A stretch of 64,000 bases of DNA from Fimbriimonadaceae bacterium (GTDB lineage: Bacteria; Armatimonadota; Fimbriimonadia; Fimbriimonadales; Fimbriimonadaceae): contig JBASWW010000071.1 of assembly GCA_049276675.1 (NCBI GenBank), positions 28,819 through 92,818 on the forward strand, read 5' to 3'. Below the pieces are notes generated by a model. That model was not told where the DNA came from, searched no databases, and saw nothing but the letters and a program-made list of their open reading frames with translations. The translations under genes were made by a program, and so were the position numbers. Every line of letters starts with the position of its first letter. Within the stretch, counting starts at the first letter, position 1. This document shows positions 15,811 through 50,330 of this stretch, piece by piece.

Positions 15811-16925
15811 CCCCCGATCTGGCTCATACTGCGGCCGACGGTGCGCTGACCCTCGGCCAGATAATGGCGCTCGGGCTTATGGAGAACAACATGATAAAAC
15901 AGGCTTCGAAGCTCCTCGTCGGACACCCCTGCCCGCAAGGGATCACGAAGGTTCAGTTCCCCGTCCGACATCAGGCATGGGCGAAGGAACCCGTCGTGGG
16001 TCAGCCGCAGGCGATTGCAGCTCTCGCAGAAGTCGTGCGTGATCTGGCTGATGAAGCCGATCGTGCCAGGGGCGCCGGGGATGCGATAGCTTCGGGCTGG
16101 CCCGTTGGTCGCGATGACCGCATGCTCCAGAGCCCCATGCACCATCTCGATCCGGTCGCGGATTTCTGCCGAAGATACGAACATGCGCCTCATCTGGGCA
16201 TCCCCAAGCATGCCGCCCGATGTCTGCCGGATCTGGAGCAATCCCTTCCCGTTGTGGGCTGCAAAAGTATCGAACGGCTCCACGTCTCCAAGGTCCCACC
16301 GGATGGGCATCAGCTCGATGAATCGAATGTGGATTTCCTCGCGCTGGGTCCAGGAGGCGAAGTCAGCAGCCTCGTGATCGTTCACTCCGCGCATGGCGAC
16401 GCAATTGATCTTGATCGGATCGAGCCCCGACTTCTTGGCTGCGGAGATGCCGCGAAGAACCTTCTCCAACGAGCCCCGCCTTGCGATTTCAACGAATCTA
16501 GCGGGGTCGAGCGTGTCCAGGCTGACATTGATCCGACTAAGCCCATTGAGTGCAAGATCGGGGGCCATCTCTTCAAGAAGGTGCCCGTTCGTCGTGCAGC
16601 TCAGGTCGTCAATGCCGGGCAGGCTGGCGATCTCCCCCACGATGCGAGGAAGATCCTTGCGGAGGAGAGGCTCGCCGCCGGTCAGCCGAACCTTCCGAAT
16701 CCCAATCGACGCCCCGATCCGGACCAGCCGAACGATCTCGTCACTCGTCAGATGTTCGTGCTTGGGTGTCGCCGGGTAGCCCTCTTCTGGCATGCAATAG
16801 ACGCAGCGGAAATTGCACCGATCCGTGACCGACACCCGCAGGTAATCGACCGTTCTCCCGAATGGATCCTTCACAGACTTTCCAACCCGCTTCAAGATAC
16901 CGGCTGGCGCCGCAAGTAAACTCAC
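15807..16925 (-). CDS. moaA: GTP 3',8-cyclase MoaA (radical SAM)
   Basis: DRCNFRCVYCMP radical-SAM cluster motif and the C-terminal FCESCNRLRLTHDG auxiliary cluster motif. An alternative GTG start lies at 16874. Confidence 0.93.
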   Translation of the reverse strand: MSLLAAPAGILKRVGKSVKDPFGRTVDYLRVSVTDRCNFRCVYCMPEEGYPATPKHEHLTSDEIVRLVRIGASIGIRKVRLTGGEPLLRKDLPRIVGEIASLPGIDDLSCTTNGHLLEEMAPDLALNGLSRINVSLDTLDPARFVEIARRGSLEKVLRGISAAKKSGLDPIKINCVAMRGVNDHEAADFASWTQREEIHIRFIELMPIRWDLGDVEPFDTFAAHNGKGLLQIRQTSGGMLGDAQMRRMFVSSAEIRDRIEMVHGALEHAVIATNGPARSYRIPGAPGTIGFISQITHDFCESCNRLRLTHDGFLRPCLMSDGELNLRDPLRAGVSDEELRSLFYHVVLHKPERHYLAEGQRTVGRSMSQIGG

Positions 16926-24609: not shown

Positions 24610-25311
24610 CTATCGCTTCCGGCGCAGTCCCAGCAGAAGAGCGCCGAGCGCGGCCAAGGTGGCAGGCTCGGGCACGATTTCTCCCTCCATCTCGAACGCC
24701 CACTCCTGATCCTGGACGCCGTTGAAAACATCCATCGTGACCCAAGGACCGAACGCGGAGCCATCCTCCATGATCTCAAAATTCCATTGGGCGCGGGCCG
24801 TCCCCTTGGCCGTTCTCGTCGTCAGTATTCCGTTCTTGCCGCCACCGTTTGAGAAGGTTTGCAGCGTCCGGAATCCAATGAAGTAATGGCCGGGGCCGAG
24901 GACCAGATCCATCGAAAGGCTATTGCTCCACACATTCTCGCCGAAGGCGGCGTTAAACCATCCCGTGTCCGCCCGATCGAGCGGTTGGCTGAATGCGCCA
25001 GTGAAGACCTCGCCCGGAGGCCCACCTGGGTTGTCGCCGTTAAAGATGTACCAATCGCCGCCGAGGATTTCGGGGTTCGATATCGGCACGCTGTAATAGG
25101 TCAGCTTCGTGAGGCGAGTGGTTTCTGTAAGGATGAAGTCGTCAGCCGCGCAGCGATAGGAGACAAAGTCGGGATCGTTTGCCCGGCTTGCAGTCCATCC
25201 GTCGGCCGTGTTCATCAGGTCGGCGGGCTTGTTGTCGATGTTCGACCAGACAACCGTCGCATTGGAAACGGCCGCGAGGGCGAGAACGGAGAAAATTGCC
25301 GGCGTACGCAT
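24610..25311 (-). CDS. PEP-CTERM sorting domain-containing secreted protein
   Basis: N-terminal signal peptide. The C-terminus VPEPATLAALGALLLGLRRKR has the PEP motif, a hydrophobic helix and a basic tail. Confidence 0.8.
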   Translation of the reverse strand: MRTPAIFSVLALAAVSNATVVWSNIDNKPADLMNTADGWTASRANDPDFVSYRCAADDFILTETTRLTKLTYYSVPISNPEILGGDWYIFNGDNPGGPPGEVFTGAFSQPLDRADTGWFNAAFGENVWSNSLSMDLVLGPGHYFIGFRTLQTFSNGGGKNGILTTRTAKGTARAQWNFEIMEDGSAFGPWVTMDVFNGVQDQEWAFEMEGEIVPEPATLAALGALLLGLRRKR

Positions 25312-26918: not shown

Positions 26919-27491
26919 GTGGGCGAGATCATTGAGAAATCCCTTGCGGAAGCGGAAGACATGTTGCGGCACTTCGTCTCCGATCGCAACACGCTCGAGG
27001 CTATGGAGTCCGCGGTTGCCGAGATCGTCAAGGCGTTTCATTCGGGCGGAAAGCTCCTGTCCTGTGGCAATGGGGGAAGCATGTGCGACGCCATGCATTT
27101 CGCCGAGGAGTGGAGTGGCCGATTCCGCCTGGACCGGCGCCCGTACCCTGCGATTGCCCTCAGCGACCCCGCCCATATGAGCTGCGTAGCGAACGATTAC
27201 GGCTACGAATTCGTGTTTTCCAGGCAGGTCGAGGCACTTGCCAAGTCCGGCGATGTCCTGTTCATTCTCACGACCTCGGGCAATTCGCCCAGTATCGTCG
27301 AGGCGGCCAAGGCGGCTCGGCTGGCTGGAGCGAGAGTGATCGGGCTTCTAGGCAAAGGGGGTGGGGAGGTGCGAGCTTTGTGCGACATCGTCATCCACGC
27401 TCCGGGCAAGACATCCGACCGAATCCAAGAGCTCCACATGCTCGCACTGCATATCCTCATCGAAGCGGCTGAGGCGCAACTGGCTCCGTAG
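26919..27491 (+). CDS. gmhA: D-sedoheptulose 7-phosphate isomerase (SIS domain)
   Basis: CGNGGSMCDAMHFAEE, TTSGNSPSIVEA and the IQELHMLALHIL tail. GTG start. Confidence 0.88.
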   Translation: MGEIIEKSLAEAEDMLRHFVSDRNTLEAMESAVAEIVKAFHSGGKLLSCGNGGSMCDAMHFAEEWSGRFRLDRRPYPAIALSDPAHMSCVANDYGYEFVFSRQVEALAKSGDVLFILTTSGNSPSIVEAAKAARLAGARVIGLLGKGGGEVRALCDIVIHAPGKTSDRIQELHMLALHILIEAAEAQLAP

Positions 27492-27521
27492 GCGCCGGTT
27501 GGCTCGAACCGGCGAACCGCC

Positions 27522-29009
27522 ATGAAGGAAGAAACCAAGGTCCTTTGGCTAGTGATCTGTCTCGCTGCGGCGCTGCCGTTCCTCGGCTTTTGGCTCACCG
27601 GGCTCACCGACCTCGACGAGGGCTACTACGGCGCGGTCGCAGCCGAGATGAATCGCCGGGGCGAATGGCTCATCCCTTTTTACAACGGCTCGCCCTGGTT
27701 CGAAAAGCCCATTCTCCTTTACTGGCTTGCCAAGCCCAGCCTGATGCTCTTCGGCGAGGTGGTCGGTCCGCGCCTGCCGAGCGTCGTTTGCAGCCTTGGA
27801 ACCCTGGCCGTCGTGGCCTGGTTCTGTCGGAGGCGGCTGTCGGATGACACGGCGAAATGGGCGGTTCTGATTCTATCCGGGAGCATCCTGTTTGGGGCCG
27901 CGGGGCAGATGATGCTTGCCGATCCGTCCCTGACCCTCTTCCTTACAGCGGCATTCCTGACCTTCTATGAATCTTTGCTCGGAGATCGGCGCTGGAGGCT
28001 AGTGACGGCCGCCTGTCTGGGGTTCGCAGTTCTCGCCAAGGGGCCGGTCGCGCTGGTGCTGTTCGGTGCTGTGGCTGGGCTCACCTACTATTTGGAGCCA
28101 TGGATCAGGCATAAGTTTCGAGGGTATTGGCTGCTCGGCACGGGAATTCTGCTTGCCGTCTTGAGCCTGTGGTACTTGCCTGTCTATCTCGCCCGGCCGG
28201 ACGGCTTTGTCCAGGAATTCCTGATAAGGCAGAATCTTCAGCGATTCACCGGAGGCGATGCGGCGCACTCTATGAACTGGGCGCTCGGGCTCGCATTCTA
28301 TGCCGCCATTCTGCTCGTTGGCTTCATGCCTTGGTCGCTTTGGTGGAAGCGATCATTTCGCGAGGCAAAGAGGGACTCGCTAGAGCGTCCGATCCTGAGA
28401 TTTCTTCTTGGATGGGCCTTGGTCGTCTGGCTCCTCTTCACAATCAGCGCGGCCAAGCTCCCTCATTACATTCTCCCTGCGATGCCTCCTCTGGCGATCG
28501 TCCTGGGCCACTATCTCGCTCAACCGAAACTCAGACAGGTCTCGATGAAATGGGGGATCGCGTGGGTCGTGGTCCTCGCGGCGATCATGAACGCGGGGCT
28601 CTTCGCTTGGTATCGAGGGTGGTTCCCAGGCACCGCCTCGCAAGCGGAAGCCCACGAGCTGGCCCGCTTCATGCGCGATCAGAAAGGGCCGGTCGCGCTG
28701 TTTCGGCTCTCGCGCCCGGATGCCTCGCTTGGCACGGGGAAGGTGGAAATCCAGCAGACGATGCTGCCCTCCATGCTCTTCTATCTGGACAGCAACGTGC
28801 TGATGCCCCGAGCTCCAAGGGAGGGCGAAGATCCACTTTCCGATGTGAAGGAGCTGATTGCCGCGCCAAAGCCCCTTTGGGTTTTTACACGGGAAGGGCG
28901 CATCACTCCGGAGATCCAATCTTTCATAGAACGCTCGCAGCACACGCTTGAGCTTGCCAAGGCCGGGCCTGCGGGCGACTACCTGGTTTACAAGTTGGAC
29001 GTGCAGTGA
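27522..29009 (+). CDS. Glycosyltransferase family 39 (ArnT/PMT-like) membrane protein
   Basis: DLDEGYYGAVAAEMNRRGEWLIPFYNGSPWFEKPILLYWL N-terminal loop motif and ~11 TM helices. Confidence 0.82.
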   Translation: MKEETKVLWLVICLAAALPFLGFWLTGLTDLDEGYYGAVAAEMNRRGEWLIPFYNGSPWFEKPILLYWLAKPSLMLFGEVVGPRLPSVVCSLGTLAVVAWFCRRRLSDDTAKWAVLILSGSILFGAAGQMMLADPSLTLFLTAAFLTFYESLLGDRRWRLVTAACLGFAVLAKGPVALVLFGAVAGLTYYLEPWIRHKFRGYWLLGTGILLAVLSLWYLPVYLARPDGFVQEFLIRQNLQRFTGGDAAHSMNWALGLAFYAAILLVGFMPWSLWWKRSFREAKRDSLERPILRFLLGWALVVWLLFTISAAKLPHYILPAMPPLAIVLGHYLAQPKLRQVSMKWGIAWVVVLAAIMNAGLFAWYRGWFPGTASQAEAHELARFMRDQKGPVALFRLSRPDASLGTGKVEIQQTMLPSMLFYLDSNVLMPRAPREGEDPLSDVKELIAAPKPLWVFTREGRITPEIQSFIERSQHTLELAKAGPAGDYLVYKLDVQ

Positions 29010-34028: not shown

Positions 34029-34583
34029 ATGAGAGTCGCGATCACGGGCGGGATCGCCGAGGGAAAAAGCACCGTCTTGGGATACCTCGCGTCAATGGGC
34101 CACTCAACATTGTCGAGCGATCGAGTAGCCGAGGACCTCTATAGTGATAGTTATATCCAGCAGCAACTAGCGGGCTTGCTGGGTATTGAAGTGCCCGTGT
34201 CGCGCGAGTCGGCGAGAAATGCGATTCTCGCACAGCCCGAACTCAGGCTAGGCCTAAACAGGCTACTTCATCCTCATATAGCAAACATTATATTGTCGGG
34301 TATATCAGAGTTTACAGAGGTGCCTCTTCTGCTGGAGACCTGCCTTCAGGGACGGTTCGACAGCATTTGGGTGGTGACCTGCGGCGGCACGGAGCAGATG
34401 CGCCGATTGATTGCTCGGCTTGGTGATGAGGAAGAGGCTGGCAGGCTGGTCCAGATTCAGATTCCCACGGAAGTGAAAACGAAATATGCGAATCAAGTGA
34501 TCCGAACTAACGCTGGTGAAGATACCGTCAAGGCATCTGTGGCGGCGGCTCTCTCAGTTGAGCTTGCGGCTCTTGCAACGTAA
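34029..34583 (+). CDS. coaE: Dephospho-CoA kinase
   Basis: MRVAITGGIAEGKSTV P-loop start and an EVPLL segment. Confidence 0.85.
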   Translation: MRVAITGGIAEGKSTVLGYLASMGHSTLSSDRVAEDLYSDSYIQQQLAGLLGIEVPVSRESARNAILAQPELRLGLNRLLHPHIANIILSGISEFTEVPLLLETCLQGRFDSIWVVTCGGTEQMRRLIARLGDEEEAGRLVQIQIPTEVKTKYANQVIRTNAGEDTVKASVAAALSVELAALAT

Positions 34584-34601
34584 ACGGGATCGTGCTATAC
34601 T
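34573..34601 (+). promoter_or_regulatory. Sigma70-like promoter candidate (TTGCAA - 17 nt - TATACT)
   Basis: TTGCAA at 34573-34578 and TATACT at 34596-34601 with a 17-nt spacer. It lies about 200 nt upstream of the GTG 34808 gene, which has a strong AAGGAGG Shine-Dalgarno. Confidence 0.4.
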
Positions 34602-34807: not shown

Positions 34808-36718
34808 GTGAGGCGGTTCATTACATCTTTGCCCGGGCGCGCCGTGATGCATTTCATGGCTGTCGCCCTTGTTTTGCCGTACCTATCTCTCGCGCTTGCG
34901 AATAGGGCCGAGGCTCAGCTTACGACTTTGCAGTCGTGGGCCGTGCTGGAGTTCGAAAACCAGAGCAAGAAAGGTGGGGCAAACTTTGGAAAGGCTGCTG
35001 CTGAGGCAGTCCATAACGAGTTGGCGAAAGCAGCCAAGGTTGACACCGTGCCGCAGGAGACGATCCAGCGGTCGATGACCGATCTTGGCCAGGTTCCGCC
35101 ACTCCGCACGAAGACGGACATGCTGCGTCTGGGCCAAGAGGTTCGAGCAACTTCTGTGGTAACCGGCGCGGTGGTCGACTGGCGTGTATCTCAGAGTGGA
35201 GGCGGAAAGAGCGGCGAGGTCGTCCTGCAGGTGATCGTCACCGACGTTGCGTCGGGGTTGCCCGCGAATGGCGCCCTTGTACAGGGTCAATCGACGACGC
35301 GTGCCGGCGACGTGTCGGATGAGACGCTTATCAACGAGGCTCTTTCGTCGGCAGCAGCGCAAGCCGTTCTGACAATCAATAGCCAGATCCTTCCGACGGG
35401 GACGGTTTTGAATACCGTCGGCCAGGAAGCTCTGATCAATCAGGGCGAGCGAACCGGCTTCAAGGTCGGGCAGGAAGTTGTCGTCCTTCGGGGACGTCAG
35501 CAGGTTGCGACCGCGGTTGTGGTCGACACCGATCCCGATAGCTCGAACATTCGAATCACTAAACAAATCCTTGGCACACAGCCTGGGGACAAGGTTCGGG
35601 CGATCTTCCCGGTGCCTGTTCCCAAGGCAGGCGGGGGGGTTTGGGGCTCTCCTGGCGGCACGCCGAACGCGAAGCCGGGAGCACGACGGGCACGTGGGGG
35701 CGCTGGCATTGGCTCCATCGCCGTTCTCATTGGCATTGCCGCGATCTTGTTCGGGGGCGGCCGCGGGTCCAGCGGAACTTTGGCCCATGATGTGAACGCC
35801 CAGGCTACGCTCTATCCGAACGAGTCGGGTGTGCCGGCAGTTCATCTGAGCTGGAGCCCGGATCTGTTCGCAAAGGGTGCGCAGCAGCGCGTCCAGTGGC
35901 AGATTTGGCGGGACGACGTCATTGACACCCCGGTTCTTGCCGTCTCTGGCGATCGGGTGACCGCCATAGACACAACGGAAGCAAGGGATGTCAGCTGGCA
36001 AGGTGCTCCGACCGGAGGCACTGAATGTGTTGGGGACAGTCGTGAAGACGCTCTGGCCCGACCTGGTGTTACGCCAGGCAGACCCTATCAGTATCAAGTT
36101 CAGTTGCTCTACAAGGTCAATTCGATCGATCTGCCCACCGGTGGCGGTGGTACCGGAACGACTGGAACGACTGGAACTACTGGAACGACCGGAACGACCG
36201 GAACGACGGGAACGACGGGCACAAATCTCTCTACAGGTGGAACAACCACCGGTGGAACAACCACGACCGGCGGAACGACGGGAACGCAGGATTGCTACTT
36301 CGCTTCGCTCAAGACAGCTGCTCGGGGCCTTGCGACCCCGTACAACAGACCTACGTTGGTTTCGCCGGCTCCCAATGCGGTGATTTCAACGCCGACGCCG
36401 TTTAGCTTCCAGTCGGTGGTGAATCCAGCATTCCCGTCGACGGTGCTATACGTGGTTCAGATCGCTACCACACCGACCTTCCCCAAGGGATCGACGGTTA
36501 CGGTTGCAACCCTGACCCGAAACGACCTGGGGACCTTGAGCACGGCCATTGTGGACGTGAGCACGATATTCCCAGGAGCTAATGAACTGTGGTGGAGGGT
36601 TGGCGCCCGCAATGTTGCGGACAATCCGGGGCCTTTGCCGGATTCGAGTGGCCAACGTTACATCTTCAGCTCCCCGCGAAGGTTCACGAGGCCGGGCGGT
36701 CCTCCTCCGCCTCCGTAA
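34808..36718 (+). CDS. Hypothetical envelope protein: signal peptide, LpoB/CsgG-like N-terminal module, internal TM helix, Thr/Gly-repeat linker
   Basis: GTG start 10 nt after AAGGAGG. WAVLEFENQSKKGG...VVTGAVVDW resembles the alpha/beta module of LpoB/CsgG/TolB-N type lipoproteins. Hydrophobic IGSIAVLIGIAAILFGG and a (TGT)n stretch are present. Confidence 0.6.
   Translation: MRRFITSLPGRAVMHFMAVALVLPYLSLALANRAEAQLTTLQSWAVLEFENQSKKGGANFGKAAAEAVHNELAKAAKVDTVPQETIQRSMTDLGQVPPLRTKTDMLRLGQEVRATSVVTGAVVDWRVSQSGGGKSGEVVLQVIVTDVASGLPANGALVQGQSTTRAGDVSDETLINEALSSAAAQAVLTINSQILPTGTVLNTVGQEALINQGERTGFKVGQEVVVLRGRQQVATAVVVDTDPDSSNIRITKQILGTQPGDKVRAIFPVPVPKAGGGVWGSPGGTPNAKPGARRARGGAGIGSIAVLIGIAAILFGGGRGSSGTLAHDVNAQATLYPNESGVPAVHLSWSPDLFAKGAQQRVQWQIWRDDVIDTPVLAVSGDRVTAIDTTEARDVSWQGAPTGGTECVGDSREDALARPGVTPGRPYQYQVQLLYKVNSIDLPTGGGGTGTTGTTGTTGTTGTTGTTGTTGTNLSTGGTTTGGTTTTGGTTGTQDCYFASLKTAARGLATPYNRPTLVSPAPNAVISTPTPFSFQSVVNPAFPSTVLYVVQIATTPTFPKGSTVTVATLTRNDLGTLSTAIVDVSTIFPGANELWWRVGARNVADNPGPLPDSSGQRYIFSSPRRFTRPGGPPPPP
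36155..36217. repeat. Seven tandem 9-bp units (ggaacgacN) encoding (GTT)7
   Basis: ggaacgact x2, ggaactact, ggaacgacc x2, ggaacgacg x2, followed by degenerate GGTTT-type units to about 36290. Confidence 0.95.
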
Positions 36719-36777
36719 CCTCGATAATTCCCCCGGCTTAGCATCGAACGCCGGGGGAATAGCGGACGTCCTCAATA

Positions 36778-39597
36778 ATGAGATTTAGCATCGTCAGGAA
36801 TACTTCTATGAAATCTGCACTTTTCAGAGCCCTTGGGGTAGTTGGATGCGCCGGCGCTACGGCCACGGTCGCGCTTGGCCAGGGCTGGTCCGATGGATGG
36901 TGTCATCCCGACGATCCGCTCCCGCCCCCTCCCGCGTATAGTATCGATTTCGGAGCAAATGTGATCGGCAACGATCTGCTCCTCGCAAGTTTGGGCATCA
37001 GGGGCACGGTCACTTGGGGAAGCCAGGACGGGCCCTGCTACGATCCCGCAGTCACGATGAACGCAAGAGGCCGCCTCGGCTTTCTTTCGGGAATTGATGG
37101 CTCGATCCAGTCCAACTTTGATGACCTGCTCGCGTATGTGACGGGTGCGCTATTTGATGTTTCTGGCGCGATGTCCTATGCGACGAGCACTCGCGACGGG
37201 ACACGAACCCTGTACGGTGCGAATGGCTGGAATTTGGCTTTCGTGGGTGAGAGCGATCGCTATTTGGTTGGTGAAACCACCAACGACAACACCTATGTTG
37301 CGCTGCGAATGGATGTGGTGGGCGATGCCGCTCGCCTGCGATGGCGGCTGACGAATCTAGGAACAGAAACCGCCGCGCTGGGCTTGTGGTACGGCGCTTG
37401 GACCGGGATGGTCGGGCAGTTCTCTGATGCCACTGGCGAGCGGTTCTCCGGAGCACGCAGCATTGCTGGTGGCAAGAATGGCTATGTCTATCCGCGCAAT
37501 GGCGAGAAGCCTGTAAGGACGGACCAGCGATACATTCGGGCTCTCGACGTGAACCGATTCCCGCCAGTGGTGGATTTCATGTTCGGCCAGACCACCGCAT
37601 ATGGATTGCGCGTTGAAACCGGGGCCACGGTCGCTACGACCGACTCCAATGGGCAGAGTGACGCTACGGAGGCCAGCGAATTCGCTCTTGGCAACAATAT
37701 CTTTATGCTGGGGCCACAGGGCGACCAGACATTCCCCGACTTCACGGTCGAGGACCTGTTCTTCCTTGACGATCCCGCCTTCATCCTAAAGTTTGCGGAG
37801 GTTAACACCGCACCCCAGGGTACGCGTGAGATCATTCACTGGATGCGAAGCACCTGGAGCGAAGGCAACTATGCCAAGCCCTACGCGGTGATTCTCGATG
37901 CGCCCAAGCTTCTCAGTGTCGACAACCAAGGAGCCAATGGACTCACCCCGAATCCGTTCACGATCCGCGTTTACGTCGACAATATCCGCGCCTATACGAC
38001 CGTCAATGAGGAGATTCCTCTTCAGGACACCAAGGTAAAGATTATCTTGCCGACCGGACTGACGCTCGAGCCGGGCGAAACCGCTGAGCGGCTGATTGGT
38101 ACCGTGCCGCCGTATGAGATTCGATCAGTCGATTACCGTGTGCGGGCAGATGGCGAGCAATTTGGCGCCCTTGCCTATCGCATCACCGTAGACTCGCTTT
38201 CGGTGCCGAACAATCCGCCGTTCACGCCCGAGAAGGTTATGACGGGCACCATCCAGGTCTCGGCGACACCAAAGCTTCGGATTGCACAGGGCGCAAATCT
38301 GATAACCACCCCCTGGATTTATGGCGATACGTCGTGGGAAACCATCTTGGCGATGCAGCAGCCCCAGGACTTCCAGGCATTCGACTGGAACGCGACCCAA
38401 CAGGGTTACGTGGTCTCGACCAGCGCACAGCGCGCGGTTGGAACGTGGATCATCGCTCCTGTGGACTATGGCTATCGACAGCTCGCCGGCAACCCGCAAG
38501 TTCCGGGCGATATTGCAAACGGCGCTCCGCTCACCCAGATCAAGCAAGGCTGGAACCTGATCGGCAATCCTTATCCTTACGCCTTCCCGCTTGGGCAGAT
38601 CGTGGGAATTTCAGGGGCGAACAATCAGGAGGCATTCCGGTGGGCCGAGCTCGTCCAGCTGGGCTTCATCGAAGGCTATCTCGCCTATTGGGATATCAAC
38701 ACCCAGTCCTATAAGTTCATTCAGGGCAACGACGCGCTGCTTCAGCCGAATACGGGCTACTGGATCTACTTGAACACGGTGCACGAGCTGACGATTTCTT
38801 GGCCGGCAATCTTCGAGCCGTTCCTTCCGGGATCGAACCGGGCGCGCTGGCAGCAATCGGACAGCCAGTGGCGAGTTCAGCTCGTCGCGAACAGCACAAG
38901 CTCGGTGGACGACTGGAACTATGTGGGGCAGGCAAAGGATGCGGCTTCCGCCAAGTCTCTTCGCACCCTCGATGCGCCGATGGGGCCGACCCAGATGGTA
39001 AACGTCACGATCGGCGGGCTGATTGACGGCAAGCCGGTGCGGCTAGCTCAGTCCATGCTCGATGCGAGAGGCCGGAAAGAGTGGTCGGTGTTCGTTGATG
39101 CGAAGGAGGCCGGTCCGGTGACCCTCACTTGGCCGAACGCAACCACGGTGCCGCGCGGCACTAGGCTGAAGCTCGTCGACATGACGAACAACCAGTCGCG
39201 CGACATGCGCCGAACCTCGGGATACACGTTTGTCATGCAGGAGCCAGGCGTTCGCGAGTTCAAGGTTCAGGTCGAGCCAGGCGGCTCATCCTCTGCCACG
39301 ATCACGAACATAGCGGTCGGCGGCGGCGGCAGAGCGCCCGGCAGCGGATTCACGATCAGCTACACCCTTTCAGGGCCGGCTACGACCACCGTTCGAGTGC
39401 TCTCGGGCGCTGGAAAGGAGGTCTACGTAGCGGCACGGGGACGAGCCGATTCGCAGGGCCAGAACCAGGTGACTTGGGGGACGCGCGACAGTGCGGGCCG
39501 CTCCGTGGCTCCTGGCGTTTATAAGATCGAGATCGTCGTTGAGACCGAAGACGGCCAGCTAGTGCGAAAGACGGTGCCCGTGAACGTCATTCGCTAA
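36778..39597 (+). CDS. Large hypothetical secreted protein with C-terminal FlgD Ig-like-type domain
   Basis: 939-aa ORF with a signal-like N-terminus (MKSALFRALGVVGCAGATATVALG). The last ~80 aa (FTISYTLSGPATTTVRVLSGAGKEVY...APGVYKIEIVVE) match the FlgD-Ig/FlgD_ig pattern. Confidence 0.6.
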   Translation: MRFSIVRNTSMKSALFRALGVVGCAGATATVALGQGWSDGWCHPDDPLPPPPAYSIDFGANVIGNDLLLASLGIRGTVTWGSQDGPCYDPAVTMNARGRLGFLSGIDGSIQSNFDDLLAYVTGALFDVSGAMSYATSTRDGTRTLYGANGWNLAFVGESDRYLVGETTNDNTYVALRMDVVGDAARLRWRLTNLGTETAALGLWYGAWTGMVGQFSDATGERFSGARSIAGGKNGYVYPRNGEKPVRTDQRYIRALDVNRFPPVVDFMFGQTTAYGLRVETGATVATTDSNGQSDATEASEFALGNNIFMLGPQGDQTFPDFTVEDLFFLDDPAFILKFAEVNTAPQGTREIIHWMRSTWSEGNYAKPYAVILDAPKLLSVDNQGANGLTPNPFTIRVYVDNIRAYTTVNEEIPLQDTKVKIILPTGLTLEPGETAERLIGTVPPYEIRSVDYRVRADGEQFGALAYRITVDSLSVPNNPPFTPEKVMTGTIQVSATPKLRIAQGANLITTPWIYGDTSWETILAMQQPQDFQAFDWNATQQGYVVSTSAQRAVGTWIIAPVDYGYRQLAGNPQVPGDIANGAPLTQIKQGWNLIGNPYPYAFPLGQIVGISGANNQEAFRWAELVQLGFIEGYLAYWDINTQSYKFIQGNDALLQPNTGYWIYLNTVHELTISWPAIFEPFLPGSNRARWQQSDSQWRVQLVANSTSSVDDWNYVGQAKDAASAKSLRTLDAPMGPTQMVNVTIGGLIDGKPVRLAQSMLDARGRKEWSVFVDAKEAGPVTLTWPNATTVPRGTRLKLVDMTNNQSRDMRRTSGYTFVMQEPGVREFKVQVEPGGSSSATITNIAVGGGGRAPGSGFTISYTLSGPATTTVRVLSGAGKEVYVAARGRADSQGQNQVTWGTRDSAGRSVAPGVYKIEIVVETEDGQLVRKTVPVNVIR

Positions 39598-39615
39598 AGA
39601 CGAGAATGGGTAGAT

Positions 39616-39650
39616 GTGTAAGGGCCGGCGAGAGCTGGCCTTTACACTTT
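39616..39650 (+). terminator. Hairpin terminator candidate after the 939-aa gene
   Basis: gtgtaagggccgg / ctggcctttacac, 13 bp including two G:U pairs, loop cgagag, then TTT. Confidence 0.55.
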
Positions 39651-39697
39651 AAGAACGCACGATGAGGAACGTTAGGGGCGTCTAAAAAGTAGGCTCC

Positions 39698-41698
39698 ATG
39701 AAACTAGTAAAGCTAATCGTTGGTTCGCTCTTTTTGGCTTGCTTGGGCTTCGCATTTTCGTCCTCAGGAACCTTGCGGCTCACCACATTTCCTTCCATGG
39801 CTGTCGCCGATGCGGGCAGCTCGGTCACCGTGACGGCCGAGGTTCGCGATTCGAATGGCAAGCCCGTCCCGGATGGCACGCAGGTCATCTTCGAGGCGAC
39901 TGCCGGTACTTTCCGAGAGAATGTCGTCGCGACCGCGAACGGCTTTGCCCGCGCTGTCTTTGTGCCGGGCAGCATTGCAGGGACGGCCAAGATCACCGCG
40001 AGCGCATTTGCTTTCAACGTGACCACGAGCGTGGAACTGGAGCTAGTCAGCGACCGCTCGCTTCTGTCCTCGGCCAACGAGTACATCGAAGTTGTGGCGC
40101 CCGACTATATGATGTATAGCATGGATCAGAGGATAATCGGCGCTGCCGGACCCCAAAAGGGCGTGAGCGTCCGGTACCGTGAAATCGAGATCGAAGCGGA
40201 CGATATTCAGATCAACGTCCAGACCTATGAGCTGCGGGCGCGCAAAGCGCGACTGCGGATGGGCACCGTCGAACGCGATTTCGAAGAGCTTTACTTCACC
40301 CTGAACCGCCGAAGAGGATTCGGCACAACCGCACATAACGTTCCGGAATTGACGATTGCGCCGCTAGGGACCGCGTTCCGCATGGTTGAAACTGGGGCGG
40401 AGCGTACTCGCTTCGGCATGGTCGCGATCAATTCAGGCGGAGTCCAGCCCTTCTATGATCAGCTTCCCTTGAACACATTCGAGTTCACGGATCTAACCGA
40501 CTCGACGACCATGATTGCCGCCAAGCGGGCAACCGCGTTCCCCAACAAAGAGATCCAATTCCAGAAAGTTGAGATCTATATGGGCGACGCGAAGGTTCTC
40601 AAGCTGCCGCTCTTTCAAGTTAATCTCATCGGTGGAACGCCCCTCCTTACCGATCAGATTCTGAATCTTGACAACAACCAGCTGTCGATCAATTACCCCC
40701 ACTATCTTTCGCTCAAACCCGGCCAGACGAGCCTATTGCGGTTCCGAACCGGTGAACGATACGGCCGTGGCTTCAACGTGAGCAGCGGCGCGTACTTGGA
40801 CTACGAGCTGAACTGGAATCGAGGCGATGACAGCCAGGGGAACCTTACCGTCAGCGGACTTGCGAGAAGCGACTGGAGCATCAGCGCCCGCCAATATAAC
40901 AAGATCGACAATCGCACGACTCTTTTCGCGCAGTCGCAGATAACCGCGCTGCGCACCCTCTACTCTTCAGGCAATATCAACAGGCAGATGGACGGCTATC
41001 AATTGAATTTGTCTGGCAGCGCCTCGAGAACATTGCGAGGGTTGCCCTACAACTCCGAGCAGTATTCGATGGTCGCCGAAAAAGATCCCACCAAGGTCGG
41101 CAGCCTGCCGCTCCGACTTTACTATGGAATGGTCGCGTCCCATAGCGGAACCCAATCCTCCACATTTTCGAGCACCCAGACGGCATATGGCCCGAGGGCA
41201 AGGATGCAATTACTTCCCCTCACGCTCGATCGGAACAGCTCGCTGAACGCCTCGCTATCCGTCAGCCATTTAAGCGGGCACAACACGAGCCGGGGCTTGA
41301 CCATTCACGGATCGACAAACCTGAGCTATCGGGCGTCCAAAGATGCATCGCTCCTGCTCACCTACGATTACATGGACGACAAGTACACCAACAGCTTTGG
41401 CGGCAAGCAGAGACTGAGCGCGCAAGGCTCCTACTATACGGGCAAGGTGAACCTGAACGTATTCGCCAGCAAGAGCCTGGACGCGCAACGTGCGACCTAC
41501 TTCGTCGACGCCACGTACAGATTCAGCAACGTCTGGCGCCTGGCATATAGCTATACATTCGACCAGTATCTGACCGAAAAGTTTGCGGACTACACTATTG
41601 GCCTGGTCTACACCTTCGGGTGGCGCGACTTTGGACTCATGTACAATGCCCGCACGAAGAGATTTGGGGTTCAGGTTCTTGGCGCTTCGTTTAACTAG
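39698..41698 (+). CDS. Hypothetical outer-membrane-type protein: signal peptide, Big_1 (invasin/intimin-like Ig) domain, long beta-rich C-terminal region
   Basis: AGSSVTVTAEVRDSNGKPVPDGTQVIFEATAGTF is a Big_1-type pattern. The C-terminal ~450 aa have alternating beta-strand-like composition ending ...RFGVQVLGASFN, an aromatic residue near the terminus as in beta-barrels. Confidence 0.55.
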   Translation: MKLVKLIVGSLFLACLGFAFSSSGTLRLTTFPSMAVADAGSSVTVTAEVRDSNGKPVPDGTQVIFEATAGTFRENVVATANGFARAVFVPGSIAGTAKITASAFAFNVTTSVELELVSDRSLLSSANEYIEVVAPDYMMYSMDQRIIGAAGPQKGVSVRYREIEIEADDIQINVQTYELRARKARLRMGTVERDFEELYFTLNRRRGFGTTAHNVPELTIAPLGTAFRMVETGAERTRFGMVAINSGGVQPFYDQLPLNTFEFTDLTDSTTMIAAKRATAFPNKEIQFQKVEIYMGDAKVLKLPLFQVNLIGGTPLLTDQILNLDNNQLSINYPHYLSLKPGQTSLLRFRTGERYGRGFNVSSGAYLDYELNWNRGDDSQGNLTVSGLARSDWSISARQYNKIDNRTTLFAQSQITALRTLYSSGNINRQMDGYQLNLSGSASRTLRGLPYNSEQYSMVAEKDPTKVGSLPLRLYYGMVASHSGTQSSTFSSTQTAYGPRARMQLLPLTLDRNSSLNASLSVSHLSGHNTSRGLTIHGSTNLSYRASKDASLLLTYDYMDDKYTNSFGGKQRLSAQGSYYTGKVNLNVFASKSLDAQRATYFVDATYRFSNVWRLAYSYTFDQYLTEKFADYTIGLVYTFGWRDFGLMYNARTKRFGVQVLGASFN

Positions 41699-43466
41699 CA
41701 TCCTGCTTGCGCTTCTTTGCGGCGCGATTGCGCGTCCCGATGCGTTCGGACGATTTGGTTATGGGGGCCTGCCTGTTCCGGGCTTCCTCGTGAACAAGGA
41801 AGGCTTTAAAGCCAGCTATCCCGGCGCCGATACATTCCGGTTTCCGAGGGCTGCCGATAAATGGAAGCCCGTGGCAACGAGCGATCTCAGCCAAACGATC
41901 TTTGTGAGCGACGAGCCAGGGTTCCCCCAAAAGCTTCGCGTTGACCTGCTGTCACAGGGATTTTCGCTCTATCTCACCAGCGACACTGTCTTGGAGCTGA
42001 ATTCGGGATCGAGCCCAATTCTCACTTGGGTAGAGGGGAGCGTAGAAAGCGGCGTGATGACGCCGGCCTCAAATTGGCTGGCAATCAGCTTTAGAGATTC
42101 CCAGCCCCCTGTTCTCTTGGCGTTTCTGGATGGACCAGGTAGCGCGATCATCGAGGGTCAGGTGGGTGCGTGGCGGCTCCGACTCAGCTACAAGGGCTGG
42201 ATTCGAATCACCCTGCCATTCGGTCTAAAGGCAATGCCGACGAACACCGCCGGCGATCTAGGCAGTTTAGTCCAGCAGGCGAAGAAGCAGATAGAGGCTT
42301 GGACGCAGATCCCTCCACTTCTGCTTGGGGTCGAGATTGCAGAGGACCCTGCGGGCCTCACGGCTACATGGAAATTTGACAAACCGGGTGCACTGATTCC
42401 GCCGGCAGCCATCCTGAGTGCGTTAGGGGGCTATGGGCTCAAGATTCTCAGCCCGTCGCGGCGCGTGTTTGATGACCTCGAGGGTCTGGGGCCTCTGTGG
42501 ATCTGCGAGACGGCCGATCTAAAGGTGCGATTTCCAATCAAGCGATTGCCAACCGGACGAGCCCTCATCAATGGCGAAGAACTGCCGCTGCCGGCCAAGC
42601 CCTCGTCCGAAATCGCGGGCATCGTCGAAACGGCCTTCGGTAACCTCATCGCGTCTTCAAATGCGAGCCTGGCTCAGGGGGCGCAGGCGGCAATTGATGC
42701 TTTTCTGGCAGGAACCGCGTACGCGGTCGAGCCAGCCACTCAACAGCAGTTGCCTTACCAGCCCGACGGCGAGGGAATTGAGAGTGCCGCCGCCTATGCG
42801 CTTCTTATGCAATCGATTGGCACTGCGGAAAAGGGGACGTCCGATTCCAATTCGCTGCTCACATCGTTGACTTGGCGCAGGGACTGGCTGACCTGGAAGG
42901 TGTGGTCCACCGATCCGGTCAAATCGCGGCGGGCGACTGCGCTTGCCGCCGTTGCCGGAGCATTGTGCCCAGAGCCCCAGCGCAGACTCGAAGCCGCCAT
43001 GAGCGAAGCGGGACTGGCAGCTGATCGCGGACTTCTCATGTGGCGGGCCCGCATGACGCGCAAAGACGAGCGGACTGAGTTGATCGAGCCGCTCCTCGAA
43101 TTGCGTCGGGCGATATTCAGCTTTCAGCCGATCGTCGACCCCTATCTGACGGCTCTTTCGAGCGAGATGCGGTTGTACAGCCCCGTCGGGGTGCGAACGA
43201 AGGAAACACCGGAGGGCTTGGAACTCTCAATCGACGCCAGCGACACCGCCCAAAGGGTCTTGATCATGGCTTCCTCTGTGGCCATCGAGGTTAAACCCGG
43301 CGCAAATGTCGCATCGATCGGCCTATCCCAGGCCCTTGGCTTTGTTCTGATTCGGATCAAGCCGAGCCAAGCGGGCGCTGCCACCATCCTGGTCGCGCGC
43401 CAGCCGTGGCATACGCGACTCCCTCACCTCAATGCTTTGCCGCGCTATTCCGAGATCGTGAAGTGA
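41646..43466 (+). CDS. Hypothetical secreted protein
   Basis: Long ORF with a signal-like LTSILLALLCGAIA segment. The start is ambiguous (41583, 41646, or a TTG near 41676). No family recognised. Confidence 0.5.
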   Translation: MPARRDLGFRFLALRLTSILLALLCGAIARPDAFGRFGYGGLPVPGFLVNKEGFKASYPGADTFRFPRAADKWKPVATSDLSQTIFVSDEPGFPQKLRVDLLSQGFSLYLTSDTVLELNSGSSPILTWVEGSVESGVMTPASNWLAISFRDSQPPVLLAFLDGPGSAIIEGQVGAWRLRLSYKGWIRITLPFGLKAMPTNTAGDLGSLVQQAKKQIEAWTQIPPLLLGVEIAEDPAGLTATWKFDKPGALIPPAAILSALGGYGLKILSPSRRVFDDLEGLGPLWICETADLKVRFPIKRLPTGRALINGEELPLPAKPSSEIAGIVETAFGNLIASSNASLAQGAQAAIDAFLAGTAYAVEPATQQQLPYQPDGEGIESAAAYALLMQSIGTAEKGTSDSNSLLTSLTWRRDWLTWKVWSTDPVKSRRATALAAVAGALCPEPQRRLEAAMSEAGLAADRGLLMWRARMTRKDERTELIEPLLELRRAIFSFQPIVDPYLTALSSEMRLYSPVGVRTKETPEGLELSIDASDTAQRVLIMASSVAIEVKPGANVASIGLSQALGFVLIRIKPSQAGAATILVARQPWHTRLPHLNALPRYSEIVK

Positions 43467-47219: not shown

Positions 47220-48215
47220 ATGACGGTGGCGCTACTCGGATTGACTCTGATTGCTCAAGTTGCAGCTCCAAGCCTCAAGTTTAACGGCAAGGCGCTCGTG
47301 ATTCAAGTAGACGGCCAAAAAGAGGTCGTTCCATTGAGGGAAAATCTTCCACCTGCCCGGATGGTTTGGTCTTTCCGGAAGGACGACAAATGGGCCGTGT
47401 GGGATTCGAAGAGAGGGTTGACCATTCGCTCAGGAAAGCGTGTTCGAAGCACCCGGCTTGCGGCTATTCCCGTCTCGCCCCGCCTGTTTTCGCGTGAGGA
47501 GATTATCGCCACTGCGCGGCTCATCAAAACGGGAACAAGAAAGCGAGATGCCTCGGCGATAGCGGGAGCCAAGAGGATCGGAACGAAGGTCTATCTTCTA
47601 GCAAGATGGACAGATCGCGCAGGCAGGCCATGGCTGGAGGCGCTGGTTGAGGTTGATTTCGAGGAAGAGATGCCTGCACCGAAGCTCTTGGGGAGATTCG
47701 ATGGATTGTCTCTGGCTAAAGCGCCTGTGGACGACAAGCTTTTGATCCTTGGAAACCAGCTCGCCATCGTCGCGAGAATGGGCGGGGGATGGGGAGTCGC
47801 ACGTTACGACCCCGAGAGCACCGTCTTCACCTCCGTTATGCTGGGTCAAAGCCTAACTCGCTACGATGCTCTGAACCACCGACTCGGCCTTTTTCAGGAG
47901 CCGACCACGTATGGAACGACGAGGGTTGGAAGAGTAGACCTGGCGAACGGGTTCCGCCGCGATCTCTTCGAAACACGTGGGACGGCAGAACTGTTGGACC
48001 AGGAGGAGCCGTTGCTGTTCGTGCTTCGGCGACGCGGCGGTCCTTGGCTGCGCAATTCGGAGACGGGCGCTGAGGTGAAGATTCCTGCTTCGGCTCGCGT
48101 TCGGAAGGTGGCCGCCGGAGTGCTCGTGTGGTCTCCCGCACTCAAGCCCACGTTTGCAGCGCTCTATGATCCCTCGCGCTGGGCTGTGCTGGCTCGCATG
48201 GAGACGCCCGGGTGA
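47220..48215 (+). CDS. Hypothetical protein (signal-like N-terminus)
   Basis: 331-aa ORF starting MTVALLGLTLIAQVAAP. No family recognised. Confidence 0.5.
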   Translation: MTVALLGLTLIAQVAAPSLKFNGKALVIQVDGQKEVVPLRENLPPARMVWSFRKDDKWAVWDSKRGLTIRSGKRVRSTRLAAIPVSPRLFSREEIIATARLIKTGTRKRDASAIAGAKRIGTKVYLLARWTDRAGRPWLEALVEVDFEEEMPAPKLLGRFDGLSLAKAPVDDKLLILGNQLAIVARMGGGWGVARYDPESTVFTSVMLGQSLTRYDALNHRLGLFQEPTTYGTTRVGRVDLANGFRRDLFETRGTAELLDQEEPLLFVLRRRGGPWLRNSETGAEVKIPASARVRKVAAGVLVWSPALKPTFAALYDPSRWAVLARMETPG

Positions 48216-48324: not shown

Positions 48325-49455
48325 TTAGATGAACTCCAAGGCGACCTCGGAGCAGAAATGCCTGCCCTCGGGTGTTAGTTTCGCGCGGCCGCCAGAGGTG
48401 CTTACCCAGCCGCGCCGCACGACTCGGTCCATGGCCTTGGCTTCGATCTCCATGCCCGCGAGACAAAGTCCCTCATTGAGCCGGATGCCGAGCATGATTT
48501 GCTCCATTCTTGCGTTGGCCTCAGTTAGCGATTCCGATTCGAAAGCCACTTCTTCGTTTGCTGCGATGGCGGCGCAGTATCTCTCTGGGTGCTTGAGGTT
48601 GGTGTAACGATGGCGTGCGAGGTTTGATGAATCGGAGAAGTTGGTCATACAGCCCACCGCCCCCGGCCCATAGCCCGCATAGTCTTCGCCCCGCCAGTAG
48701 CAAAGGTTGTGGCGGCACTCGAAACCCGGTTGGGCGAAGTTGCTGATCTCGTACTGAAGGTAGCCCGCAGACTGGGCGAAGACAACGGCATCCTCATACA
48801 TAGCAACCTGAGCCTCATCGTCGGGCAGGACCAGCTGGCCGTGAAGATGCTGCTTGTAGAAAGGCGTGTTTGGCTCCAGTGTGAGGCAGTAAAGGCTCAA
48901 ATGTTCCGGTCGGAGTTCGATCACCCGCCGCAGATTCTCATGCCATGCACGGCTGCTTTGGCCAGGAAGCGCAAACATCAGGTCGAGGTTAATATTCTCG
49001 AAACCTGCATCCCGAGCCGCGCCAAACGCTTGCTCGATCTCCCCCGAACGGTGGACCCTGCCCAGCCGCAGCAGGTCGTCATCCTTGAAGCTCTGGGCAC
49101 CGAGGCTGATCCGGTTGAACCCAGCCTCGCGCATCCTCCGGAACTTCGCCATGTCGACAGTGCCAGGATTCGCCTCGCTCGTGATTTCTGCGTCAGTGAC
49201 CGGCGGATGGGCCCGAACCACCGCTTCCAGAATCCGCACGAGTTGCTCTGGCGGGATGAATGTGGGCGTACCGCCTCCGAAGAAGATGGTCTTCGCCGGT
49301 ATGCCGGTCCACGGGCTGCGCTCGATCTCGGCGATGATAGCGGCGGTCGTGCTCTCCATGATGTCTCCACTCATGGCGTAGGAATTGAAGTCGCAATAGC
49401 CGCATTTACTCGGACAAAACGGGATATGGACGTAGACGGCGATCTGTTGAGGCAC
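48325..49455 (-). CDS. hemW: Radical SAM family heme chaperone HemW
   Basis: VYVHIPFCPSKCGYCDFNS radical-SAM motif and the HemN-like C-terminal domain. The GTG start overlaps the upstream stop (TAGTG). Confidence 0.88.
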   Translation of the reverse strand: MPQQIAVYVHIPFCPSKCGYCDFNSYAMSGDIMESTTAAIIAEIERSPWTGIPAKTIFFGGGTPTFIPPEQLVRILEAVVRAHPPVTDAEITSEANPGTVDMAKFRRMREAGFNRISLGAQSFKDDDLLRLGRVHRSGEIEQAFGAARDAGFENINLDLMFALPGQSSRAWHENLRRVIELRPEHLSLYCLTLEPNTPFYKQHLHGQLVLPDDEAQVAMYEDAVVFAQSAGYLQYEISNFAQPGFECRHNLCYWRGEDYAGYGPGAVGCMTNFSDSSNLARHRYTNLKHPERYCAAIAANEEVAFESESLTEANARMEQIMLGIRLNEGLCLAGMEIEAKAMDRVVRRGWVSTSGGRAKLTPEGRHFCSEVALEFI

Positions 49456-50246
49456 TACTTGACCTCTTCGAAAAGCAGTATGCGCTGGGCTGGCAGATCA
49501 ACCTTGCATAGCTCGCCCTTGTCAGTGATATAGGCTTTCTGCGTGTGATCGGGCCAGATGAAGTCGATTGTCTGACCTTTCTTCTTGACGAGCCCGGTTC
49601 CTTGCGTCCAGTCGAAGCGGTTGGATATGCGCGCTGTGACTTTGAGGGGAGCTCCTGTGACCGGGTTGAGCACGGCGAAGGTCTTTTCGCGCAGAGTCAC
49701 CTCGCCGTTCTTGATCATGGGAGTGAATGCGGCATCGAAGGGCGCCATACCGTCCGCGGGGAAGATGGTCGTGGTCTTGGTTCCCTTGGGACCGGAGGTC
49801 GTGAGCTCGATTTCATCCTTGCCGAAAAGCGCCTCGCCCCGATAGTTTCCGCTCGCGTCCTGCCAGGTGTACGTTTCTCTGAGAACCTTGCCCTCCAGGC
49901 TGACATAGGTTTGGCGGGTTAGCTTAATAGTCGAGCGTGCTTCGAGATTGCCTCCCTTGAGCACCTGGGTGGTGTAGGCGTCGGTGTCGAGCACCAGGCA
50001 GGGTTTTTGAGCGAAAAGGCCGTTGACGACCTTCCAGCCCATCCAGCCAAGCCGGAGGTCGATGGAGGTTTTGTTGACGACGTCGCCGAACGAGGTGCCC
50101 GTCTTGCGGCTCACGTATAGGCCGAGGACGCTCGGTGACTGAAGCTGGACCCCTAGGGCGTATTCCTTCTGGCCGCCGAGCCAAGGTCCCTGGGTGTGGG
50201 CTGCTGCGGAAATTAGGATGACGGCAAACCAGAGGTAGCGGCTCAT
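49455..50246 (-). CDS. Hypothetical secreted protein
   Basis: The internal ATG gives signal peptide MSRYLWFAVILISAAAHTQG. Translationally coupled to hemW. No family recognised. Confidence 0.5.
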   Translation of the reverse strand: MSRYLWFAVILISAAAHTQGPWLGGQKEYALGVQLQSPSVLGLYVSRKTGTSFGDVVNKTSIDLRLGWMGWKVVNGLFAQKPCLVLDTDAYTTQVLKGGNLEARSTIKLTRQTYVSLEGKVLRETYTWQDASGNYRGEALFGKDEIELTTSGPKGTKTTTIFPADGMAPFDAAFTPMIKNGEVTLREKTFAVLNPVTGAPLKVTARISNRFDWTQGTGLVKKKGQTIDFIWPDHTQKAYITDKGELCKVDLPAQRILLFEEVK

Positions 50247-50330
50247 AGCACTAACAATTTGGATGCATCGAGTGGGATGGAAAGTTCTGAAGACTCCCAC
50301 GGTTCACAATGGCACCGACTGCTGGGACAA

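Follow-up and report, generated by a model that had tools for sequence, protein, structure and literature searches.

A cluster of four genes, designated g1 to g4, was identified at positions 34808-43466 of a 64,000-nucleotide (nt) stretch of DNA (the window; contig JBASWW010000071.1 of assembly GCA_049276675.1) from an uncultured Fimbriimonadaceae bacterium (Armatimonadota) of soil. The four open reading frames (ORFs) were co-directional on the plus strand, to which all cluster coordinates below refer, and all encoded exported proteins: g1 (34808-36718, 636 amino acids [aa]), g2 (36778-39597, 939 aa), g3 (39698-41698, 666 aa), and g4 (maximal ORF 41583-43466, its start overlapping the 3' end of g3). 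The conserved unit across the phylum was composed of g1, a g2-type cargo gene, and g3, while g4 was confined to the order Fimbriimonadales. We tentatively read the cluster, at somewhat less than even probability and by analogy with known machineries, as the Fimbriimonadales form of an Armatimonadota-wide gene set that may build a machinery by which large surface proteins are exported across, or anchored in, the outer membrane (OM). All four families were annotated only as hypothetical or "Ig-like domain-containing" (Ig, immunoglobulin), and the cluster matches no named system.

Conservation of the cluster across Armatimonadota

A scan of one genome per species gave 80 loci, all from Fimbriimonadales except for a few bins that were evidently mislabelled, and three loci fetched by protein identity raised the number to 83: 62 with intact gene order, 13 cut by contig ends, and 8 true exceptions. 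The order g1-g2-g3-g4 was kept in 62 of the 70 informative loci from other Fimbriimonadales species, loci with differing flanks among them; a sequence-only reading of this DNA, which had proposed an undescribed cell-surface system and named synteny in related genomes as its check, was borne out on this point, and also on the gene layout itself, since the four co-directional ORFs, the 59-nt g1-g2 and 100-nt g2-g3 gaps, and the g3/g4 overlap were all reproduced. The exceptions were of three kinds: (i) four loci with g3-g4 and no upstream g1-g2, (ii) one locus without g2, where g1 stood directly before g3, and (iii) three loci without a recognizable g4. These eight were L028, L030-L032, L034, L017, L060, and L065: L017 had no g4, and NadB came after its g3; L060 and L065 each had at the g4 position a ~730-aa ORF that was unrelated or highly diverged.

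Median identities were 37-43% for g1-g4 versus 62-71% for NadB and S1, and thus the four genes evolved faster than these neighbors while keeping their order. Ribosomal protein S1, CoaE, and NadB flanked the block in most Fimbriimonadales loci (S1-CoaE even in a distant class); 18 of the 62 intact loci lacked S1 and 19 lacked NadB. A 642-aa Peptidase_S8 gene was found in some Fimbriimonadaceae (L002, 13778-15706; L003, 6453-8381), convergent on g4 and located where NadB stands in the window; it lacked the g2 C-terminal module (see below), unlike the cluster-internal S8 proteases of other classes. Four records (L012, L038, L062, and protein P0295), titled Methanoregulaceae archaeon, Methyloversatilis discipulorum, uncultured archaeon, and Rhodococcus sp., carried a Fimbriimonadales-type cluster at 37-46% identity with the same neighbors, and they are probably mis-binned or mislabelled contigs of metagenome-assembled genomes.

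Homologues of g1, g2-type genes, and g3 were also clustered in four to five distant Armatimonadota loci at 23-35% identity. Homology was confirmed there by local tblastn and hidden Markov model (HMM) searches for both halves of g1, for g2 residues ~300-939, and for g3; the same searches found no g4 homologue in these loci, g4 homologues being present in Fimbriimonadales only. In L084 and L086-L088, a g1 homologue (with a weak CsgG Pfam match) lay a few genes upstream of the g3 homologue. Three of these four loci harbored an S8 subtilisin-like protease plus a ~1000-aa g2 homologue between g1 and g3 and a small unannotated protein immediately before g3, and in two of these contexts a 2150-2300-aa PD40/CarboxypepD_reg repeat protein preceded the cluster. 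The fifth locus, L089, fetched via its g1 homologue, displayed the order S1-CoaE, giant protein, g1, S8 protease, g2, giant protein. Of the four-gene system proposed earlier, the g1, g2-type, and g3 part therefore stood phylum-wide; g4 turned out to be order-specific, and other classes had extra cluster genes (S8 protease, giant repeat proteins, and the small protein before g3).

In L084 (14888-22124), the g1/g3 cluster lay 3 kb upstream of flgF/G, flgA, flgH, flgI, and flgK (flagellar rod, L-ring, and P-ring). This adjacency, seen in one lineage only, deserves mention for the resemblance of g1 to FlgT and for the FlgD-type Ig of the putative cargo tag (see below for both).

Architecture of the encoded proteins

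N-terminal export signals were present on all four proteins, and a conserved lipobox was found in none of them; an extracytoplasmic location is supported by these signals and by conserved Cys pairs in the C-terminal half of g1 and at the N-terminus of g2. The sequence-only reading had named a confident unrelated annotation of each protein as damaging to it; none of the four received one, and the domain-level impressions of that reading were largely upheld: (i) the signal, LpoB-type module, transmembrane helix, and Thr/Gly repeat of g1, (ii) the secreted g2 with its FlgD-type Ig end, (iii) the Big_1 domain and barrel-like stretch of g3, for which even the faint OstA/LptD impression agreed with the best fold match of the model, and (iv) the secreted, motif-less g4.

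The g3 protein was composed of a signal peptide, a Big_1 Ig domain (residues 26-105; E 7e-9), a beta-sandwich (130-205), long strands, and a barrel extending to residue 661, and it ended in ...GASFN. A model built with AlphaFold2 (AF2) from 26 sequences was all-beta with a large C-terminal barrel: the Ig domain (24-117) was followed by a short disordered linker, a confident beta-sandwich at 130-205 (predicted local distance difference test [pLDDT] ~90), and strands leading into the barrel; DSSP on this model, which had a predicted template modeling score (pTM) of 0.43, showed 20 clear strands of the barrel beyond residue 343, preceded by as many as 6 further long strands; for comparison, the barrel of LptD is 26-stranded. 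In a Foldseek comparison with PDB, the first 12 places were all taken by LptD (E 4e-14 to 2e-10), followed by the FimD/PapC ushers (E 2e-7 to 1e-6) and then by TonB-dependent receptors and other barrels (~1e-5). As modelled, g3 has an OM-type beta-barrel preceded by the Big_1 Ig domain and the beta-sandwich, the LptD-like fold spanning residues 130-661 (40085..41680), and by analogy with LptD its N-terminal domains would lie in the periplasm.

This likeness was confined to fold. Pfam LptD (PF04453) and LptD_N/OstA (PF03968) gave no match at E<=10 in 26 g3 family members, hhalign of the g3 core profile against Escherichia coli LptD returned a probability of 0.4%, and a g3 profile search against PDB sequences retrieved the Ig domain only; a siderophore-receptor match (E 0.002) was treated as noise. 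The core profile, built without the Ig domain, was also searched against 1.84 billion representative proteins at E<=1e-3 and matched 364 of them, and with so few matches canonical LptD, a much larger family, was taken as not reached. Homologues of g3 were full-length Fimbriimonadaceae proteins (best identity 72%; 46% in Fimbriimonas ginsengisoli); Big_1 was retained in 10 of 10 distant members examined, and all named members were from Armatimonadota. Mature g3 was cysteine-free, its single Cys being residue 15 inside the signal peptide. The top conserved motif was NYPHYLSLKPG, with two invariant prolines, located where the C-terminal part of the barrel has its first strands.

The g1 protein displayed the layout signal, FlgT-like two-domain module, hydrophobic helix, Thr/Gly stalk, Ig-like end domain, and poly-Pro tail, with orthologues in 66 Fimbriimonadales loci and five distant Armatimonadota loci. 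Its signal sequence (residues 1-37) had the conserved pattern MRRF...RAxAQ, and the n-region MRRF(I/L)xSLxGK was loosely twin-arginine-like. Residues 38-268 (34919..35611) comprised a TolB-N/LpoB/CsgG/PelC-type alpha/beta domain followed by a small beta-barrel, corresponding to the FlgT N and M domains. When the N-terminal part was used as a single query sequence, only 10 mostly fragmentary homologues were returned, and the search was repeated with an alignment, and residues 1-335 were modelled with AF2 from 45 sequences. The resulting model (pLDDT 87, pTM 0.73) contained the alpha/beta domain (pLDDT above 90), with the fold of the TolB-N/LpoB/CsgG/PelC-like superfamily, the small beta-barrel, and a helix at 299-316. 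The best Foldseek match of this N-terminal half was FlgT (3w1e/8z5n; E 4e-13, 274 columns over two domains), followed by GNA1162, PelC, CsgG, and LpoB (E 4e-7 to 1e-5, TM to target 0.6-0.68); LptE was not among the 50 best matches. At the sequence level, g1 itself had a weak Pfam LpoB match (E 0.09), a few orthologues had weak matches to LpoB, FlgT_M (two orthologues), or LptE (one, E 0.086), and a PDB-chain sequence search gave nothing useful. According to the model, the FlgT/PelC/CsgG/LpoB fold of g1 is that of proteins located under the OM, mostly as rings, beside a barrel or a basal body.

C-terminal to this module, g1 contained a conserved Gly/Ala-rich hydrophobic helix (residues 299-318, AGIGSIAVLIGIAAILF; 35702..35761), a Thr/Gly repeat linker (residues 444-493; 36137..36286) lying between invariant Cys407 and Cys496 and varying from 0 to ~100 residues among orthologues, and a beta domain (residues 494-636; 36287..36718) with the motif WWRVGARN..D.PGP and a PPPP tail. 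The end domain was conserved in distant Armatimonadota, and four orthologues had weak SusE Pfam matches there (best 8e-5). Across 26 orthologues, the 15 residues preceding the helix contained on average 3.3 Lys/Arg, versus 0.8 after it (residues ~284-333; 35657-35806), a bias that gives the helix the orientation of a signal anchor, which would export the C-terminal half. The N-terminal signal predicts a periplasmic FlgT-like module, and the C-terminal half looks extracytoplasmic, judging from the invariant Cys pair, the Thr/Gly stalk, and the SusE-like beta domain. We speculate that the helix might not lie in the inner membrane but in or at the OM, or inside the g3 barrel.

The g2 protein carried a Sec-type signal peptide, a conserved Cys pair near the mature N-terminus, an N-terminal region of ~580 aa that matched no known family, and a C-terminal module (residues 585-939; 38530..39594) made up of a GWNLIGNPY...GYW beta domain, a middle domain, and a FlgD-type Ig (857-923). 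The FlgD_ig match (E 5e-7) was found in 26 of 26 orthologues; the g2 profile matched nothing beyond FlgD_ig among PDB chains, and NCBIfam gave faint matches to the PorZ and PorU C-termini (E 0.085-0.22). In L086-L089, HMMs of g2 585-850 and 850-939 also matched the cluster-encoded S8 proteases and giant repeat proteins, and thus a C-terminal module of ~350 aa was common to three otherwise unrelated kinds of large secreted cluster protein, the module-bearing giant repeat proteins being 1800-2300 aa long and the cargo being rich in Ig and beta-propeller domains. By analogy, this module resembles a shared sorting or anchoring tag.

The likely start of g4 was TTG at 41679, as judged from the orthologue alignment and the Fimbriimonas ginsengisoli gene call, which gave a ~595-aa product (41679..43466) and a 20-nt overlap with g3; TTG 41664 and ATG 41646 were other possible starts. 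An overlap of the g4 start with the g3 end was seen in nearly all loci. The protein had a signal peptide, its mature N-terminus carried a conserved FGRFGY, and no known domain was matched in Pfam or NCBIfam; Ncd coiled-coil matches from a PDB-chain search were treated as noise. A relationship of g4 to the small proteins flanking g3 in other classes was also considered and set aside, no HMM match being obtained at E<=0.1.

Two hairpins were found inside the cluster, where the sequence-only reading had seen one, after g2. The latter was recovered as a stem-loop following the g2 stop codon (39611..39651), with a 14-bp core and 18 pairs overall, then UUUACACUUU; its z was -5.9, and 0 of 200 shuffles folded as well. 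The additional one was an 11-bp GC-rich hairpin just 3' of the g1 stop codon (36727..36760; z -2.8). Stable structure (z < -2) was present at the post-g1 position in 53 of 63 orthologous loci and at the post-g2 position in 65 of 72. The hairpins of both positions were GC-rich with sequences differing among loci, and a U-tract followed some only. They could act as internal attenuators or mRNA stabilizers that set subunit ratios. Upstream of g1, a sigma-70-like candidate promoter match (TTGCAA-17-TATACT, 9/12; 34573..34601) was located in the 224-nt CoaE-g1 spacer; the claim of a terminator and a promoter-like site before g1 did not survive, since a scan of this region found promoter and terminator consensus sites no commoner than in shuffled sequence, and these sites were rejected as evidence of a transcription unit.

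Candidate functions of the cluster

A barrel, a ring-type partner, and large exported proteins sharing a module together follow the logic of an apparatus for export across the OM or for anchoring in it. In such an apparatus, the cargo (g2 in this window) would pass the inner membrane by Sec; its C-terminal module would serve as a tag recognized by a g1-g3 complex; the g3 barrel would be the conduit or the anchor point; g1 would scaffold beneath the barrel, its helix, Thr/Gly stalk, and end domain reaching towards or across the OM; g4, which would be translationally coupled to g3, might be a lineage-specific accessory subunit; and the hairpins after g1 and g2 might set differing expression levels of scaffold, cargo, and barrel. 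That the module acts as a recognition tag, and the barrel as a conduit, are steps that we infer. The assembly or secretion module put forward by the sequence-only reading was retained in so far as scaffold, barrel, and exported-protein parts fit it; its function, secretion or assembly, we infer from anatomy alone. A more specific proposal, which we regard as rather unlikely, has two forms: g1-g3 might be the OM core of a new Armatimonadota-specific export or display system, in which an LptD-like barrel goes with a ~350-aa module recognized on proteases and giant adhesin-like proteins, or g3 might be the cryptic LptD equivalent of Terrabacterial diderms, possibly coupling lipopolysaccharide (LPS) insertion and protein anchoring.

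Several observations weigh against an export or anchoring apparatus. No energy source or inner-membrane component was evident in the cluster. The g3 model was of moderate confidence (mean pLDDT 75.8, pTM 0.43), and its TM-scores to LptD were <=0.30. The charge bias around the g1 helix conflicts with a simple signal-peptide-plus-stop-transfer topology, as far as the sequence goes. As regards gene content, L028 and L030-L032 had g3-g4 and no g1-g2 within 10 kb upstream, L084 had no g2-type gene, and in Fimbriimonadales g2 was the sole module bearer near the locus, so that the idea of a cargo family comes from other classes. The S1-CoaE-cluster-NadB neighborhood was itself fairly conserved, and slow rearrangement could explain part of the synteny.

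That g3 is simply the functional LptD of Armatimonadota, an LPS inserter cryptic at the sequence level, with the g1 alpha/beta domain perhaps replacing LptE and with g2 and g4 accessory or merely adjacent, is unlikely in our estimate and yet the main rival. In its favor, the 12 best fold matches of g3 were all LptD, with E-values 10^3 to 10^7 better than those of the next class; in the model, the beta-sandwich stood directly before the barrel, as the LptD jellyroll does; g3 occurred once per locus among housekeeping genes; and one g1 orthologue had the weak LptE Pfam match. The gate strands of LptD are proline-kinked, and the prolines of NYPHYLSLKPG recall them. Lipid A and core biosynthesis genes are present in Fimbriimonas ginsengisoli (PMC4072686), core LPS genes in Armatimonadetes (PMC5007114), and lptD/lptE were not found by sequence in the Terrabacterial diderm phyla surveyed (PMC5007114, PMC8871954). 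Lipoproteins of the OM, LptE among them, have been described as occurring less widely than the diderm envelope itself and as likely acquired later (PMC11784454), and a non-lipoprotein partner would therefore make sense. But neither sequence nor profile comparison related g3 to LptD or OstA, the lack of cysteines leaves it without the interdomain disulfides, the sandwich is preceded by an Ig domain, located at the LptA-docking end of an LptD, and LptE stood outside the 50 best fold matches of g1, with FlgT, PelC, and CsgG inside; moreover, an LPS translocon has no need of large secreted proteins sharing a tag, such as the conserved partners here. A little less likely still to us is a structural envelope complex, in which a surface layer or a periplasm-spanning lattice would be made of g2 and, in other classes, of the giant repeat proteins, with g3 as anchor and g1 as spacer or tether across the wide periplasm. 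The long, length-variable Thr/Gly stalk and multiple domains of g1, the Ig- and beta-propeller-rich cargo, and the structural ring role of FlgT agree with it, as do the post-g2 hairpin, consistent with high expression of a structural protein, and the diderm envelope with a wide periplasm of ~55 nm seen by cryo-electron tomography in an Armatimonadota isolate (PMC11535203); but the presence of the same module on an S8 protease is easier to reconcile with secreted enzymes than with a lattice, an LptD/usher-like barrel of this size exceeds what an anchor needs, and Pfam scans, including those of g1 and g2 orthologues, found no SLH or OmpM-type peptidoglycan-binding domain.

Lack of any common function, with four unrelated envelope proteins kept adjacent by slow rearrangement of an S1-CoaE...NadB core stretch, seems improbable. 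The recurrent S1, CoaE, and NadB flanks would suit it, the hairpins after g1 and g2 could terminate separate transcription units, and the promoter and terminator matches were not above chance. But the block persisted in the intact loci that lacked S1 or NadB, g1, g2-type genes, and g3 remained clustered at 23-35% identity while intervening and surrounding genes changed, the g3 and g4 genes overlapped, and the C-terminal module linked several cluster genes. Even in that case there would be a modest gain, namely better annotation of four "hypothetical" families. For an export or anchoring apparatus, or for a cryptic LptD, more would follow: Armatimonadota are diderm Terrabacteria with LPS genes, how the OM is built and crossed is poorly known in this part of the tree, and a phylum-wide family with an LptD-like fold that is invisible at the sequence level and paired with a FlgT/PelC-like protein is a concrete candidate for the missing LPS inserter or for a new OM export route that would re-use its architecture. 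Fimbriimonas ginsengisoli is cultured, and direct testing is thus possible.

Genomic surroundings and known systems

The same-strand genes 5' of the cluster encoded ribosomal protein S1 and CoaE, and NadB was convergent from the 3' side. The rest of the window was ordinary chromosome with glycoside hydrolases, molybdenum-cofactor genes, a GGDEF protein, ArgS, and two tRNAs. A mobile element or horizontal island was rejected, given the flat GC content (0.56-0.60 for the cluster versus 0.58-0.63 elsewhere) and its housekeeping neighbors. At 26919-29009, 6 kb upstream of the cluster, a gene for a 190-aa SIS_2 protein was followed by one for a PMT_2/ArnT-type membrane glycosyltransferase; the former, for which the SIS match alone was computed, we take by impression to be a GmhA-like heptose-pathway isomerase, and the pair may be relevant to the LPS core or to the O-glycosylation of proteins, e.g., of the g1 Thr-rich stalk. 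At 13004-14485, a single 493-aa ORF united three functions of molybdopterin synthesis by a fusion of MoaE, ThiF/MoeB, and rhodanese domains, and it adjoined MoeA and a molybdopterin oxidoreductase. The ORFs 15687-16919 (410 aa, overlapping a 372-aa ORF on the opposite strand), 24610-25311 (233 aa), and 49455-50300 (281 aa) had no Pfam match at E<=1e-4, and ORF 47220-48215 (331 aa) had none in a scan at E<=1e-3.

The cluster was also compared with characterized systems, each of which differed from it in at least one defining feature, while the component folds are the familiar ones of OM machinery. Like LptD of the proteobacterial LptD-LptE translocon (4q35, 5iv9, 9ia0), g3 in its moderately confident model had a beta-sandwich followed by a very large C-terminal barrel, and it occurred once per locus among core genes, as lptD does; unlike LptD, it had a Big_1 Ig domain added at the N-terminus, a sandwich of only ~75 residues, no disulfides, and no sequence similarity, and it lacked a lipoprotein partner, g1 resembling FlgT/PelC instead of LptE and the cluster containing large tagged secreted proteins. 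FlgT of the Vibrio flagellar H-ring (3w1e, 8z5n) matched g1 residues ~38-268 in fold over its N and M domains at 12-13% identity; however, g1 had the helix, stalk, and Ig-like domain in place of the FlgT C domain, and no flagellar genes were found in the window, L084 being the only distant locus with such genes nearby. Fimbriimonas ginsengisoli has been described as non-motile (PMC4072686).

As for the inverse autotransporters intimin and invasin, g3 likewise combined a Big_1/Invasin_D3 Ig domain and an OM barrel in one polypeptide, but in reversed order (Ig N-terminal, barrel C-terminal), with a single Ig and with a far larger barrel than the 12-stranded one of intimin. The ushers FimD and PapC were the second-tier fold match of g3 and share a large barrel plus an N-terminal beta domain, and an internal hairpin after an upstream structural gene is also a feature of pilus operons; g3, however, had no Usher Pfam match and no C-terminal domains after the barrel, where ushers have two, and no chaperone or pilin genes were adjacent, as they are in chaperone-usher systems. 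The C-terminal domains of the type IX secretion system (T9SS) are, like the g2 module, Ig-like beta-sandwiches on otherwise unrelated large secreted proteins (here a protease and giant repeats); the module was, however, ~350 aa instead of ~80 aa and matched Pfam FlgD_ig instead of Por_Secre_tail (Por_Secre_tail/TIGR04183 domains mark T9SS cargo), and SprA/Sov, PorV, and GldKLMN were annotated in none of the fetched loci. The T9SS is known from the Fibrobacteres-Chlorobi-Bacteroidetes group, outside of which Armatimonadota lie. Intimin-like, usher, and T9SS membership was rejected, the defining features being absent.

The alpha/beta fold of g1 was that of PelC, CsgG, LpoB, and GNA1162, and g1 was paired with an OM barrel gene as PelC is with PelB. 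CsgG and PelC are lipoproteins that form 9- or 12-mer rings, whereas g1 lacked a lipobox and contained, beyond the alpha/beta domain, a beta-barrel domain, the hydrophobic helix, the Thr/Gly stalk, and the Ig-like domain; g3 lacked the tetratricopeptide repeat region of PelB, and the cluster lacked the polysaccharide synthase and curli subunit genes of Pel and curli systems. Taken part by part, PelBC/CsgG provided the closest parallel for the pairing of scaffold and barrel, the ushers for a wide barrel passing Ig-like domains, and the T9SS for a C-terminal tag.

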